From a virus (lineage: Duplodnaviria; Caudoviricetes): a stretch of 29,382 bases of DNA. The translations under genes were made by a program, and so were the position numbers. Numbering within the stretch: position 1 is the stretch's first letter; the number at the start of each line of letters is the position of its first letter. The stretch spans positions 1 to 29,382 of IMG/VR virus record IMGVR_UViG_3300032305_000118. One strand, written 5' to 3'. Below are positions 416 to 10,184 of the stretch, one piece after another. Below the pieces are notes generated by a model. The model had not been told where the DNA came from. It worked only from the letters and a program-made list of their open reading frames with translations, and did not search any database.

Positions 416-428
416 TAACAGGGAGAAA
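416..428 (+). promoter_or_regulatory. Conserved RBS-overlapping motif TAACAGGGAGAAA (copy 1)
   Basis: Directly upstream of ATG 433; near-identical copies at 1440, 3221 and 3817. Confidence 0.6.
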
Positions 429-432
429 TAAA

Positions 433-1440
433 ATGAGTTTGAGTTTCAATAAACTTGCAAGCAAGGTACGTTCAACAGACCCCTATCGGGGGACTATGCG
501 TTACCCGATGGAGAATCGTAGTAATCGAAATAATGTCTTCGAACTAGTCGAGACCGATAACGATATTGAGTTCCATGTGTCGCATGGACATAGATATGTG
601 GAGAAGGAAATCAGCGAGGCTAGGTTCAAACTGCTCGATGGTGTGCGTGGCGCAAGAGTTCATAAGAAGACGCATGACCGTGAGAATTACGAATACTACA
701 CTCACGAGTCTGTACCAAGAGTTCTGTGCGTGGTGCGTTCGGATGATACGCTAGAGTATGTTGCTGACTCGTACTGGCAAGGTGACAACATGAAGATGAC
801 TGATTGGATAGGAGGTTATCAGTATGACTCTTATCGGATGAGTGGGACTGCGTATGCAAGTAATTACTATGGGAGAGATATTAATCACCCAATCTTCAAG
901 GGGTTGCGTATTGATGCTGACCACAACCCCGTCGGACAGAATGTGCAAGTGTTCCGTAGGACTGTGAATCGTAAGCGTTCTAAAGAGTTGATGGGTAGAT
1001 ACAAGGAGTTGTTTAAGTCACCCGATGCGATGCTCAAGTGTATGGATACGGAAACAATGGTTGTGACTATTAAAGATATATTAGATGAACACTTTGGTAA
1101 CAACGACAACCACTATGTATCTACTAAGGATTGCTTCACGATAGCTGAGAGAATGTTTGCCGAAGGTAGCAATTACGACGGTGTGATTCTGCATGGCTTT
1201 GCACAAGGTCTTCAAGGGTTCAATCGTTGGGCAATAGATAGTTATACATCAAAACAGAATCGTAGCTATTACAGGATGGTCGAGCCTAAGAATGTAGTGC
1301 CAAGACTTATCGCTAGTATGTCTAAGAAGTTATACAAGGAGTTCAAACCATTCGATGAGGAAGAAGTGAGTTTCAAGAATGTAGCCCCAAGTCAATGGGG
1401 TATTCGTGTAGTAGTAGATGGTGTAGAAGTTAAACTTTAA
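433..1440 (+). CDS. Hypothetical phage early protein (335 aa)
   Basis: Long ORF with GGGAG RBS; no motif recognised. Confidence 0.8.
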   Translation: MSLSFNKLASKVRSTDPYRGTMRYPMENRSNRNNVFELVETDNDIEFHVSHGHRYVEKEISEARFKLLDGVRGARVHKKTHDRENYEYYTHESVPRVLCVVRSDDTLEYVADSYWQGDNMKMTDWIGGYQYDSYRMSGTAYASNYYGRDINHPIFKGLRIDADHNPVGQNVQVFRRTVNRKRSKELMGRYKELFKSPDAMLKCMDTETMVVTIKDILDEHFGNNDNHYVSTKDCFTIAERMFAEGSNYDGVILHGFAQGLQGFNRWAIDSYTSKQNRSYYRMVEPKNVVPRLIASMSKKLYKEFKPFDEEEVSFKNVAPSQWGIRVVVDGVEVKL

Positions 1441-1450
1441 ACAGGGGAAA
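1440..1450 (+). promoter_or_regulatory. Conserved RBS-overlapping motif AACAGGGGAAA (copy 2)
   Basis: Directly upstream of ATG 1455. Confidence 0.55.
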
Positions 1451-3060: not shown

Positions 3061-3239
3061 ATTCACTAGTGTGTGAACTACTAGAAAGTGGTTGGCAACC
3101 ATTGAAACGAAAACGTCATTGGCAAGTTGTTTCACCGACAGGACTTAAGTTAACTATTCCTGTTACACCAAGTGACGGGAGAGCGTTCCTAAATTTTAGG
3201 GGCGATGTTAGACGGGCTACACAGGGAGTAAGTATATGA
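3030..3239 (+). CDS. HicA-like small dsRBD-fold protein (possible mRNA interferase)
   Basis: 69 aa, LLESGW...RHWQVVSPTG...TIPVTPSD..AFLNFR; size and conserved His pattern fit the HicA-like family. Confidence 0.6.
   Translation: MGKYSKNKDVDSLVCELLESGWQPLKRKRHWQVVSPTGLKLTIPVTPSDGRAFLNFRGDVRRATQGVSI
3221..3231 (+). promoter_or_regulatory. Partial RBS-overlapping motif ACAGGGAGTAA (copy 3)
   Basis: Upstream of ATG 3236. Confidence 0.4.
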
Positions 3240-3448
3240 GACCATTAATAACTTTGCGCAAGCTAAAGTCAGTTGATATAAACGAAGTAATAAGCAAACC
3301 ACCAATGGCTATTGAGCGTGGGTCAAAGTTTGTTTATACCAACGGCTCTGACGTTATGAAAACATTTAAGCGGTACGGGTTCATACCACCATCTGAGGTG
3401 CGCAACGACTATCTCTTTAAAAAGAATCGTGAGATGAAAGATGAATGA
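3236..3448 (+). CDS. Hypothetical protein
   Basis: ATGA overlap with the upstream gene; GGGAG RBS. Confidence 0.7.
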   Translation: MRPLITLRKLKSVDINEVISKPPMAIERGSKFVYTNGSDVMKTFKRYGFIPPSEVRNDYLFKKNREMKDE

Positions 3449-3629: not shown

Positions 3630-3819
3630 ACGATTTGAGCCTATCCCTTTTATGGGTGTGGTTGAGATAGATGAAAATGAGGTTTACCCTATGACACAAC
3701 AGGAGGTGGCAGATGTACTAAACACAAGTAGACCCGAAGTTAGTCGTATTGAGAAACGAGCAATGCAGAAGTTTAAACAGAAGCTTTTAAAGAAGTTCAA
3801 CAAAGATGATTTTATTTAA
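3622..3819 (+). CDS. Stand-alone sigma-70 region 4 helix-turn-helix protein
   Basis: MTQQEVADVLNTSRPEVSRIEKRAMQKFK matches the sigma region 4.2 pattern (T..EIA..L.IS...VSRIE..A..KL). Confidence 0.8.
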   Translation: MTKRFEPIPFMGVVEIDENEVYPMTQQEVADVLNTSRPEVSRIEKRAMQKFKQKLLKKFNKDDFI

Positions 3820-3829
3820 CAGGGAGAAG
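3817..3829 (+). promoter_or_regulatory. Conserved RBS-overlapping motif TAACAGGGAGAAG (copy 4)
   Basis: Directly upstream of ATG 3833. Confidence 0.6.
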
Positions 3830-3832
3830 TAA

Positions 3833-4246
3833 ATGAGAAGAGTATCAACAAAAACCACAAAAGTATTAGCTTATCTAGAAAATAATCCTAGTGCCAAGCC
3901 AGCAGATGTGGCTAAGAAGTTTAAGATGGCGGTGCAGTATGTGTATAAATTACGAGGCTACACTAAGTTGGATAAGGCTCTAGAGATGAGCAAACCATCG
4001 GCGGTGTTCTTAGTTAAGAATTCCTTAAAAAAGGAAACCAAAGATAACGTCAACAGTCCAGCACATTATATTACTGGTGGGATCGAGACTATTGATTTCA
4101 TCGAGGCAAAGTCTCTTAACTATAACCTTGGCAATGTAGTGAAGTATGTATCTCGTTCAGACTACAAAGGCAAGAAACTAGAGGACTTGAAGAAGGCTCG
4201 TTGGTATCTATGTCGTGAAATATCTAACTTGGAGAAAGTAAAATGA
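3833..4246 (+). CDS. N-terminal HTH fused to a DUF3310 (SaV / T7 gp1.7 nucleotide kinase-like) domain
   Basis: DNVNSPAHY..GGIETIDFI...LGNVVKYVSR...K...EDLKKARWYL is the DUF3310 signature; N-terminal NPSAKPADVAKKFKMAVQYVY is HTH-like. Confidence 0.85.
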   Translation: MRRVSTKTTKVLAYLENNPSAKPADVAKKFKMAVQYVYKLRGYTKLDKALEMSKPSAVFLVKNSLKKETKDNVNSPAHYITGGIETIDFIEAKSLNYNLGNVVKYVSRSDYKGKKLEDLKKARWYLCREISNLEKVK

Positions 4247-7453: not shown

Positions 7454-8106
7454 TGTTTACATGGTCATATTCAGCCCTTAAGGACTATGTTAATTGTCCG
7501 AAGCAATATCAAGAGGTCAAAGTTTTAAAGAACTATCAGAAGGTTATGACTCAACAGATTCTTTACGGAAATCAAGTCCATAAAGCTCTGGAGAACTACA
7601 TTAAAGACGGCGAACCCCTTGCTGAGAACTATAAAAGATTTGAAAAACTGATGGACACCTTAAAGGATATACCTGGGGAATTCCATCCTGAGCTTCGTAT
7701 GGCACTTAATTACGAGAAAAAAGCTTGTAAATGGAGCGCGGAAGATTGTTGGGCTAGGGGTATAGTTGACTTCCTAGTGGTTGACGGTGAGGATGCCTTT
7801 ATTGTGGACTACAAAACGGGTAGCAATAAGTACCCTGATGTAAAACAATTAAAACTGATGGCTTTGATGGTTTTTGAGCATTTTCCCAAAGTAAAGAACA
7901 TTAAGGCTGGGTTGATGTTCGTCATGCATAACAGTTTTATTACAGAGGAATACGTACGGGATCAAATAATACAGCTGTGGGATGCTTTCTTACCAGACCT
8001 TGCTCGTTTGACCCATTCGTACGAAAATGATGTATGGCAAGCAAACCCCACCCCCCTATGTGGTTGGTGTCCAGTTAAGTCTTGCGAACACCACAAGGAG
8101 AGATAA
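7453..8106 (+). CDS. Cas4/RecB-like PD-(D/E)xK exonuclease
   Basis: WSYS..KDYVNCPKQY; G..VHKALE; RGIVDF; IVDYKTG; QL.LMA; C-terminal CGWCP....C completing a 1+3 Cys Fe-S staple. ATG 7453 preferred over 7447 on SD spacing. Confidence 0.88.
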   Translation: MFTWSYSALKDYVNCPKQYQEVKVLKNYQKVMTQQILYGNQVHKALENYIKDGEPLAENYKRFEKLMDTLKDIPGEFHPELRMALNYEKKACKWSAEDCWARGIVDFLVVDGEDAFIVDYKTGSNKYPDVKQLKLMALMVFEHFPKVKNIKAGLMFVMHNSFITEEYVRDQIIQLWDAFLPDLARLTHSYENDVWQANPTPLCGWCPVKSCEHHKER

Positions 8107-8417
8107 TGCCGTACGTAACTAAAGCCCGACCCTATAAGAAGGAATACCAGCAACAAAAGGCTCGTGGAGAGCATGAGAACCGCATGGAGCGTCAAAAAGC
8201 ACGACGAGCTATGGACAAGACAGGAAAGGATGCCAACGGTAACGGTAAGGCAGACAAGCGGGAAGGCAAAGACATAGCCCACCGCAAAGCTTTGGACAAA
8301 GGTGGTTCTAATAAACACGGTGTGTATGTAACCACTGCCGCTAAGAATCGTAGCTTTAAGCGTGACTCAAAGGGTAACTTGGTATCTGAAACAAGTAAAA
8401 AAGAACGTAAAAAATAG
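8106..8417 (+). CDS. HNH endonuclease-like protein
   Basis: R.YKKEY...R..ARR...GKDIAHRKALDKGGSN...KNRS phage HNH pattern; ATG 8106 with AAGGAG RBS and TAATG overlap. Confidence 0.75.
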   Translation: MPYVTKARPYKKEYQQQKARGEHENRMERQKARRAMDKTGKDANGNGKADKREGKDIAHRKALDKGGSNKHGVYVTTAAKNRSFKRDSKGNLVSETSKKERKK

Positions 8418-8429
8418 TACAAACCCCTA

Positions 8430-8466
8430 TTACTTTTTGTAAAGTTATGGTGTAAAGTATTAGGAT
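8430..8466 (+). promoter_or_regulatory. Possible sigma-70 promoter for the ncRNA / helicase operon
   Basis: TTGTAA(8437)-18 bp-TAGGAT(8461), or TTACTT(8430)-17 bp-TAAAGT(8453), in AT-rich intergenic DNA. Confidence 0.35.
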
Positions 8467-8469
8467 ACC

Positions 8470-8586
8470 GTTAGACATGAGTGGGTATTAAAAAGCTCCT
8501 TCACGAGTAAACCATGTCAGTTAGATTTGCTGCTTTTCATCCCTGTTGGGCAGTAAAAGACTAACCGACTAACCCCCGTAAGGGGT
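8470..8586 (+). ncRNA. Candidate structured small RNA (three-way junction with two antisense-like loops plus a GNRA hairpin)
   Basis: P1 GTTAG(8470)/CTAAC(8569); P2 ACATG(8475)/CATGT(8513) with GTGGG/TTCAC; P3 GTTAG(8520)/CTAAC(8561) plus TTTGCTGCTT/GGGCAGTAAA; then CCCC-GTAA-GGGG. Confidence 0.6.
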
Positions 8587-8612
8587 CACAGTTAAATTAG
8601 TTAAGGACTTTA

Positions 8613-10184
8613 ATGCAGATAGTAGACGACACAGCAGTACGCTTTACAGTACCTACGGAGTTAGCTCCTATGGTGCTTAATACCATAGAGAAAAGCGAGT
8701 TAGTACAAACCAAAGGGAATCTATCTGAATTATTAGTTTATTGGGGGATAGAAGAACTAACCCATTTAAACCGCCTAATAAAGTTTAATAAGCGTTTACC
8801 CTCACCTATTAGCAAGCACTACAGCTGGCCTGGGTTATACAAACCGTTTGACCATCAGCGCACCACTGCTGAGTTTCTTTCTATTAACATGAGAGCCTTT
8901 TGTTTTAACGAGGCTGGCACAGGAAAGACTTCGTCAGTCATATGGGCGGCAGACTATTTGATGACACACAAAGTAATAAAAAAAGTATTAGTGATTTGCC
9001 CTCTGTCAATTATGTATTCAGCATGGCAAGCAGACATATTTAAAACTGCTATGCACAGGAGAGTTGCTGTTGCATACGGAGATGCAGCTAAGCGTAAAAA
9101 GATTATTAACGGAGACTACGAATTTATTATCATTAACTATGATGGTATCGGAATAGTTTTCGATGAATTAGACACCGTAGGGTTTGACCTAATAGTAATT
9201 GATGAGGCAAACGCTTATAAAAACGTTACGACTAAACGCTGGAAAGCTTTAGCAAAACTAATGAAACCAACAACAAGGCTTTGGATGTTAACAGGGACAC
9301 CAGCATCACAATCACCAATCGACGCATTTGGGTTAGCTAAACTTGTATCACCACAAAACGTACCACGCACAATGACTGTGTGGCGGGATAAAGTTATGCA
9401 CCAACTCAATCGTTTTAAGTGGGTTCCAAAGTCTGACTCAAAAGATAAAGTGTTTGATGCGCTACAACCAGCTATACGCTATACGAAGAGTGAGTGCCTA
9501 GACTTGCCTCCTGTGATGTATCAAACAAGGGAAGTACCCTTATCCCCACAGGCTTTGCGGTACTATAACGCCCTCAAGAAAGATATGCTTATTCAAGCGG
9601 CTGGGGAGCAAGTAACCACAGTCAATGCGGCAACAAACCTTAACAAATTACTACAGTTATCAGGCGGTGCAGTCTATACCGACGAAAGAGAAGTAGTAGA
9701 ATTTGATGTTGCTCCTCGTAAGAACGCATTACTAGAAGTGATTGAAGAAACAGAACATAAGCTGGTTGTGTTTGTACCCTTTACACACACGATTCATTTG
9801 GTGCGTAAGTTCTTATTAGCAGAAGGTATTACTAATGAAGTAATTGATGGCAGTGTTTCAGCAATAGAAAGAAGCAATGTTATTAAGCGGTTTCAAGAAA
9901 CGTCTGAGCCTCGTGTTCTTGTGATTCAGCCGCAAGCTGCAAGTCATGGTGTCACTTTGACTGCGGCAAATACTGTAGTATTTTGGTCTCCTGTAACAAG
10001 TGTTGAGACGTATTTACAATGTATTGCTCGTATTGACAGATATGGACAGAAGAACAAGATGACAGTAGTGCATTTACAAGGCTCGCCAGTAGAAAGAAGG
10101 ATGTACGAAGTGTTACAAAGTAAAGTTGATGCCCACGAGAAGTTAGTGGACTTGTATAAATTAGAACTCGGTTTAGGAGAATAA
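8613..10184 (+). CDS. SNF2-family (SF2) helicase/ATPase
   Basis: Q-motif FDHQ; Walker A EAGTGKT; ICPLS; Walker B IVIDEAN; motif III LTGTP; HGVTLTAA; motif VI QCIARIDRYGQ. Confidence 0.92.
   Translation: MQIVDDTAVRFTVPTELAPMVLNTIEKSELVQTKGNLSELLVYWGIEELTHLNRLIKFNKRLPSPISKHYSWPGLYKPFDHQRTTAEFLSINMRAFCFNEAGTGKTSSVIWAADYLMTHKVIKKVLVICPLSIMYSAWQADIFKTAMHRRVAVAYGDAAKRKKIINGDYEFIIINYDGIGIVFDELDTVGFDLIVIDEANAYKNVTTKRWKALAKLMKPTTRLWMLTGTPASQSPIDAFGLAKLVSPQNVPRTMTVWRDKVMHQLNRFKWVPKSDSKDKVFDALQPAIRYTKSECLDLPPVMYQTREVPLSPQALRYYNALKKDMLIQAAGEQVTTVNAATNLNKLLQLSGGAVYTDEREVVEFDVAPRKNALLEVIEETEHKLVVFVPFTHTIHLVRKFLLAEGITNEVIDGSVSAIERSNVIKRFQETSEPRVLVIQPQAASHGVTLTAANTVVFWSPVTSVETYLQCIARIDRYGQKNKMTVVHLQGSPVERRMYEVLQSKVDAHEKLVDLYKLELGLGE

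Follow-up and report, generated by a model that had tools for sequence, protein, structure and literature searches.

The window analyzed here is the whole 29.4-kb virus record IMGVR_UViG_3300032305_000118 (29,382 nt, completeness about 46%). Its plus strand carries a predicted RNA of about 120 nt in which a pseudoknotted scaffold holds out a variable loop, and this loop is complementary to the ribosome binding sites (RBSs) of early genes of the same phage. Across related phages the pseudoknot fold is conserved, the loop is complementary to early-gene RBSs, and loop and targets covary. Judged from comparative sequence analysis, the RNA is probably a trans-acting, c4-like antisense repressor of the translation of an early regulon in apparently lytic phages. 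In lytic phages, the shut-off of early genes is usually ascribed to proteins. Here, one short RNA loop and the private RBS word of up to nine early genes appear to have changed together many times, and the prediction would be the first function for a widespread orphan RNA family related to Proteo-phage-1. The RNA, its parts and its predicted targets in the window are:

8464..8585, plus strand: predicted structured RNA of about 120 nt, pseudoknot scaffold with variable antisense loop (about 243 distinct copies; covariation; model R1)
8464..8489, plus strand: P1 hairpin (8464-69/8484-89), in the minimum free energy (MFE) fold; 7 of 7 aligned pairs vary on both sides, 70% of cells paired
8475..8517, plus strand: pseudoknot helix (8475-79/8513-17), conserved AAAC (8509-12) before and CA (8518-19) after
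8495..8508, plus strand: variable P2 hairpin, without target covariation
8520..8565, plus strand: P3 stem-loop (8520-35/8548-65), outer helix 94% paired, 5 of 6 pairs compensatory
8536..8547, plus strand: P3 loop, predicted guide (anti-RBS), from loop-RBS covariation and pairing
8574..8585, plus strand: P4 GNRA (GUAA) hairpin, swapped for other small hairpins in relatives
417..424, plus strand: predicted target, Shine-Dalgarno (SD) region of gene 433-1440 (335 aa); family alone z -1.6, 8 clusters
1440..1447, plus strand: predicted target, SD region of gene 1455-2390 (311 aa); family z -3.9
3221..3227, plus strand: predicted target, SD region of gene 3236-3448 (70 aa), from site match and pairing energy
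3818..3825, plus strand: predicted target, SD region of gene 3833-4246 (DUF3310 protein); family z -3.8

The family architecture consists of the P1 hairpin with conserved RUHAG and AGUR in its loop, a 5-bp pseudoknot from this loop to the strand that follows AAC, then CA, P3 and a small P4. In the window, the 14-nt P1 loop contains the conserved 8470-74 and 8480-83 together with the 5' pseudoknot strand. In an alignment of 29 copies, both partners vary at 15 of the 18 pairs, a score that none of 500 shuffles matched, and pairing reaches 86% versus 30-36% in slid controls. The pseudoknot helix is paired in 100% of cells, with compensatory changes at three of its five pairs. Stem covariation, on which a preliminary description of this DNA had let the RNA stand or fall, is therefore present in the alignment. 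The folding z of the window sequence by itself is only -1.84. G-U pairs and the GNRA loop fix the orientation, so the plus strand is taken as the RNA strand.

The preliminary description had drawn a three-way junction. Its quoted sequences all lie at the coordinates given, and P3, the loop at 8536-47 and the GUAA hairpin all appear in the MFE fold; the plain junction gives way to a pseudoknot, because the hairpin 8464-69/8484-89, which had been overlooked, encloses the 5' strand of the helix then called P2 (8475-79/8513-17). The proposed outer helix 8470-74/8569-73 found no support over the 29 copies (35% paired; 212 of 500 shuffles equally good). In the window subgroup it is a possible helix, as 101 of 108 copies can pair there at four or five of five positions, in that register only and with little covariation. 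P4 is of the CGUAAG type in 109 copies, of the GGAAAGAC type in 37, of the CACGUUACG type in 14 and of other types in 83.

Pattern scans and fetched regions yielded 251 distinct copies, reduced to 248 by dropping L477, L493 and L498, and to 243 by five further drops. Rows left out at later stages were the false pattern hits L513, L519, L497 and L512, along with L429 and L313, the last with a mis-set P3. This 243-copy set was filtered for pairing and is therefore no evidence of pairing. Such evidence comes from a search by helicase only, which gave 80 loci, 44 of them with the flanking anchors upstream. With no pairing filter, the pseudoknot pairs at 5/5 positions in 39 of these and at 4/5 in four, and L001 was mis-anchored (its true copy was located separately). 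A group of Vibrio repeats (L472, L479, L484, L492, L504, L505, L509, L513, L519), which we take to be integron attC-like, fits the core search pattern by chance.

The window loop, whose central UCCC is predicted to be unpaired and whose flanks may make a weak 2-bp helix, was said to match four early genes, and all four sites do overlap the SD region. Two of them, at the starts 433 and 3833, give the full duplex of 13 bp with a single bulged A (about -16 kcal/mol), and pairing at the starts 1455 and 3236 reaches about -12 kcal/mol. The count of ACAGGGR in the window is ordinary (8 found, 5.3 expected, reached by 12 of 100 shuffles). Its placement is unusual, since the word occurs in 4 of 23 plus-strand start regions, in 0 of 9 late ones and in 11 of 1957 in other carrier phages. 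All four starts open AUGAR, so that in an alternative pairing the UUCAU of the loop could bind the start codon while the spacer bulges out. The coding part of the helicase gene contains a fifth stretch complementary to the loop (9290-9297, -13.8 kcal/mol), which may be due to chance.

Loop-target covariation was assessed in phages with at least 7 kb upstream, in which genes were called and grouped into families, start codons were called heuristically, and each loop, defined by a fixed folding rule, was scored against each genome. A first test with all upstream genes gave p from 0.006 to 0.0001 in 33 clusters, and its P2 control gave no signal by two of three measures and p 0.02 by the third. 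For six early families, picked after inspection, the own-genome pairing excess was -2.3 kcal/mol (z -5.55; 51 loci, 19 clusters), and five controls were null, with z of -0.8 to -1.3 for P2, shuffled and reversed loops and coding windows. When each of 20 families was tested on its own, four stood out, namely the AAA ATPase (-4.9), a 296-aa family (-3.4) and the families of genes 1455 (-3.9) and 3833 (-3.8). Nothing comparable came from polymerase, exonuclease, SSB, primase or the adjacent helicase (+0.18), and middle genes showed a faint signal (z -1.9). The signal is limited to -20..-6 relative to the start, and the P2 loop gave none in eight windows from -40 to +30. Between clusters, the RBS scored -6.3 and -5.0 versus -1.8 for the best of 14 coding offsets. 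Ten phages found later through the vWA gene, all with new loops, served as a held-out set and gave z -4.26 (p 2e-5), even with the inclusion of L702, where the folding rule chose the wrong sub-loop. The loop thus covaries with the early-gene RBSs of its own genome, another of the points on which the preliminary description had rested its case.

The same relation can be seen in the distribution of loop-complementary words, which were chosen by eye. The L536 word occurs in 9 of 24 start regions before the polymerase gene, in 0 of 13 from it onward and in 7 of 2344 in other phages (loop CUCCCUGUUU, with ACAGGGAG before the nine early genes). For L555, whose loop is CACCUCG and whose early genes are preceded by UGAGGU, the counts are 7/22, 0/9 and 23/2372; for L215 they are 9/20, 0/14 and 64/2328, and for the window word 4/10, 0/16 and 14/2344. 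In L697, with loop GCUACCUCG, the word GAGGUAGC precedes the three core early genes. In L710, L714 and L719 the early RBSs have GGAGAAUGCA in common, and the P2 loop UUGCA could pair with the spacer. It is possible that P2 is a second guide loop in this clade, despite the lack of a family-wide P2 signal.

Among the predicted targets are an AAA ATPase and a DUF2201 peptidase-vWA protein; for jumbo phages, PMC7824862 proposes that these two work together as a chaperone system. Targets of about 300 aa belong to no Pfam or PHROG family, and their predicted models (pLDDT 90 and 85) have no match in the PDB; matches of target genes in the Atlas are all under 0.9. For gene 433-1440, Atlas neighbours below 0.9 hint at an ADP-ribosyltransferase-like protein, and its predicted fold has no PDB match. 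The covariation marks which genes, otherwise without assignment, would make up the early regulon in an abundant group of uncultured aquatic phages.

As a mechanism, we propose that transcription of the RNA would start at a promoter immediately 5' of P1, or that cleavage of the operon mRNA would release it. The knot may shield the 5' end or bind a protein partner, and would present the loop, which may then pair over about -14 to -5 of early mRNAs and keep the 30S subunit off. Up to about nine early genes would be silenced, namely those for the AAA ATPase, the peptidase-vWA protein, the proteins of about 300 aa and the DUF3310 protein, with repression beginning once the replication operon is transcribed. 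A sigma-70-like promoter lies at most 75 nt upstream in 49 of 243 copies versus 7/187, 4/183 and 3/176 in control windows, which speaks for an independent RNA. The octamer TGTAAAGT occurs twice just 5' of P1 in the window (8438-8445 and 8451-8458) and is a possible phage-type promoter element. If the prediction is correct, the RNA would also offer a compact natural scaffold for programmable translational silencing.

Several observations weigh against repression in trans. The within-clade test gave only z -2.9, with one coding control at -2.5 and a control spread of 1.3; the effective sample is thus inflated by shared ancestry, and since the phages are related the z values overstate independence. 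The own genome ranks first in only about 6 of 19 clusters. When the most-shared RBS 7-mer was picked blindly, it matched the loop at 7/7 positions in 8 of 54 cases versus 7%, and at six or more in 17 of 54 versus 24%. The set of early genes was selected after inspection, and many loops look like a generic anti-SD. The window copy has no recognizable promoter or terminator, so it may be processed from, or act within, the operon mRNA. U-rich tails are confined to 17 of 148 copies, and of 181 copies that could be assessed, 175 have a gene on the same strand at most 260 nt away. Finally, canonical Proteo-phage-1 copies showed no self-targeting (n=25, mostly in satellite-like elements; z -0.2 to -0.8).

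The RNA had been presented as either an early-to-middle switch or an RNA-based immunity system. The switch fits better and immunity of lysogens is less likely, because a tyrosine integrase was found in 0 of 35 carrier genomes (23 of them at least 90% complete; other integrase types were not searched). A related and rather improbable explanation, compatible with repression of early genes and not exclusive of it, is that the pairing is real and serves to exclude kindred phages, or to drive mRNA decay through a protein bound to the knot, and not to set timing. In its favour, clades differ in loop and address in the manner expected of immunity types, a Polynucleobacter chromosome island (L499) harbours a copy with a U-run, and c4 acts in this way according to PMC5320573. 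The absence of tyrosine integrase speaks against it, as does the lack of a matching RBS word within the 20-kb L499 locus. We give a still lower probability to a cis-acting leader (a riboswitch-like aptamer or attenuator) of the helicase-SSB-primase operon, with an incidental match to early genes. An H-type knot with invariant loop bases does resemble small-ligand aptamers, and in 158 of 230 copies the helicase gene follows within 250 nt. However, this proximity is explained equally well by synteny and by cis action. A further 15 copies lie farther away with genes inserted between (of the remainder, 31 are too short and 26 were flagged as lacking the helicase, eight of these through a mis-extrapolated start), and in L122, L499 and L522 the RNA faces a convergent gene and leads nothing. 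Moreover, the loop does not covary with the helicase RBS as it does with those of early genes, and in the window the two pair at only -3.4 kcal/mol. A second role of the knot in cis, in addition to repression in trans, is possible.

That loop and RBSs merely follow a third factor, such as the tail of the host 16S rRNA or a protein that binds the RBS word, seems very improbable to us. Many loops do read like an anti-SD, middle genes show their faint signal, and the window word, we assume, resembles a CsrA site; but the addresses are markedly different from one phage to the next and hardly occur at the middle and late genes within a genome, and a protein decoy would bear the site itself, whereas the structured strand bears its complement. 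Processing of the operon mRNA by a self-cleaving ribozyme would suit a compact pseudoknot with invariant unpaired bases. It is nevertheless hardly credible, as no Rfam ribozyme matched and the loop-RBS covariation would be left unexplained. Resemblances to hatchet, pistol, hepatitis delta virus and c-di-AMP RNAs were likewise considered and dropped for want of Rfam support. Repression of the early regulon in trans is therefore the reading that we retain.

On the plus strand of the window, the vWA gene is followed by unassigned early genes, DNA polymerase, exonuclease, SNF2 helicase and primase, and virion and lysis genes occupy the minus strand. The RNA sits in a 195-nt gap between two genes:

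8106..8417, plus strand: conserved 103-aa gene upstream of the RNA, weak PHROG 4590 match, presumably HNH-like
8613..10184, plus strand: SNF2 helicase gene downstream of the RNA, own RBS without loop covariation (z +0.18)

Directly 5' of the helicase start, one clade (L026, L050, L056 and many others) has another small conserved hairpin. It is also found in relatives without the main RNA and is possibly a translational operator. No annotated phage matched window positions 8100-9200, and a run search listed no RNA holder, a result that counts neither for nor against the RNA. Hosts of the carriers are probably Betaproteobacteria, because an isolate contig of Polynucleobacter carries a copy, as do Methylophilaceae, Fluviibacter and beta-proteobacterial bins; some copies lie instead in bins labelled Planktophila, Actinomycetota and Marinoscillum. 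A comparison of carriers with non-carriers was void, as all six supposed non-carriers bear diverged copies.

The copy in Polynucleobacter sp. 73C-SIWE (L499, 9914-10081, minus strand) stands alone in a chromosome island and is followed by a U-run. It adjoins what by reading of the sequence are a toxin-antitoxin-like gene pair, a sigma70-r4-like helix-turn-helix (HTH) gene and a vWA gene. Carriers in other phage groups (G050, G013, G020) have no clear multi-gene address. In G035 and G038 there is one 7-8 bp loop match each, at the RBS of an HTH replication-initiator-like gene. G021 appeared to be a false match, and G043 had no copy.

An Rfam search, proposed in the preliminary description, matched the window to no known family: here, as in L007, L499 and 20 short loci, the scans returned chance matches only, with no riboswitch, ribozyme or C4. 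The closest known RNA is Proteo-phage-1 (RF03044; Rfam type "Gene; sRNA", small RNA), whose Rfam consensus has the same core order. Compared by eye, both have a hairpin loop NNNAG-N5/6-AGUG followed by AAC-N5-CA with loop-tail complementarity, and true Proteo-phage-1 members also have a following stem, outside the Rfam model, with a variable and often anti-SD-like loop. They differ in that Proteo-phage-1 has a 5' hairpin ahead of the core, absent from the window fold and from alignment A1, and in that its pseudoknot strands are of the CCGG type, whereas this RNA has RYRYG strands and adds the variable P2 insert. RF03044 (cut-off 42 bits) did not match the window, and none of 50 carriers exceeded the cut-off; their six weak matches all fell away from the motif positions known here. 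Conversely, model R1 matched 0 of 20 canonical Proteo-phage-1 loci, with an 11-bit partial match on the second core in L477. As neither model scores the RNAs of the other, we regard this RNA as a structural relative of Proteo-phage-1 and not a member by score.

Canonical Proteo-phage-1 copies are found mostly in satellite-like elements of about 10-12 kb or as leaders of late genes. In L603-L660, L593 and L477 they mostly precede the head-tail connector gene of satellite-like elements, and L477 contains two cores 350 nt apart. In the temperate Pseudomonas phage phiAH14a (L738) a copy lies ahead of late genes, and its loop, together with the stem arm, finds its best partners in the terminase and in several leftward early genes, an anecdote because group means do not differ. 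One may speculate, as a doubtful extension, that the knot is a portable, reprogrammable guide-RNA chassis that recruits a protein effector and whose exchangeable loop would address an entire regulon, used by lytic phages on their own early genes and by Proteo-phage-1 satellites on mRNAs of helper phages, in the latter case as a weapon of RNA-guided interference. Helper mRNAs are proposed as targets because satellite loops do not match the satellites' own genes.

Our literature search found no published function for Proteo-phage-1 and no paper describing the loop-RBS relation; coverage of subscription journals was thin, and the supplement of PMC5737381 and the alignments of PMC10690425 lay outside it. 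The accessible parts of PMC10085705 and of bioRxiv 10.64898/2026.09.22.753630 held nothing relevant. DNAVirus_1549, listed without function in the accessible part of PMC10690425 (Fremin et al., 2023), has 117 nt and 74 freshwater sequences, of which 25 have an SNF2 gene no more than 25 bp away, and judged by this description, and not by sequence, may be the same RNA. The structure was thus already known in part, from relatives in RF03044 and perhaps from DNAVirus_1549, and, as far as this search goes, the loop-target covariation and the functional prediction, which has strong comparative support, are new.

The preliminary description likened the RNA to the CI RNA of phage P4 and to c4 of P1/P7. 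The P4 CI RNA pairs through a loop with its own phage's transcripts, but acts on the transcript of origin and triggers termination. It is likewise a phage RNA that acts through loop pairing, and it had no Rfam match to the window. The c4 RNA acts on one operon in a temperate phage. The RNA described here differs in being pseudoknotted, with one covarying loop directed at many dispersed genes, in phages without a tyrosine integrase; it has neither an Rfam C4 match nor a three-stem cloverleaf, nor a second specificity loop, P2 being silent from -40 to +30. PMC5320573 describes c4 as an RNA of 77 nt with three stems and two pairing loops, processed by RNase P; its stems are conserved, its variable exposed loops pair in trans and occlude RBSs, and loop changes set specificity. 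The likeness to c4 therefore holds for the variable loop, complementary to its target RBSs and covarying with them, whereas the scaffold that presents this loop is a different one, related to Proteo-phage-1 instead.
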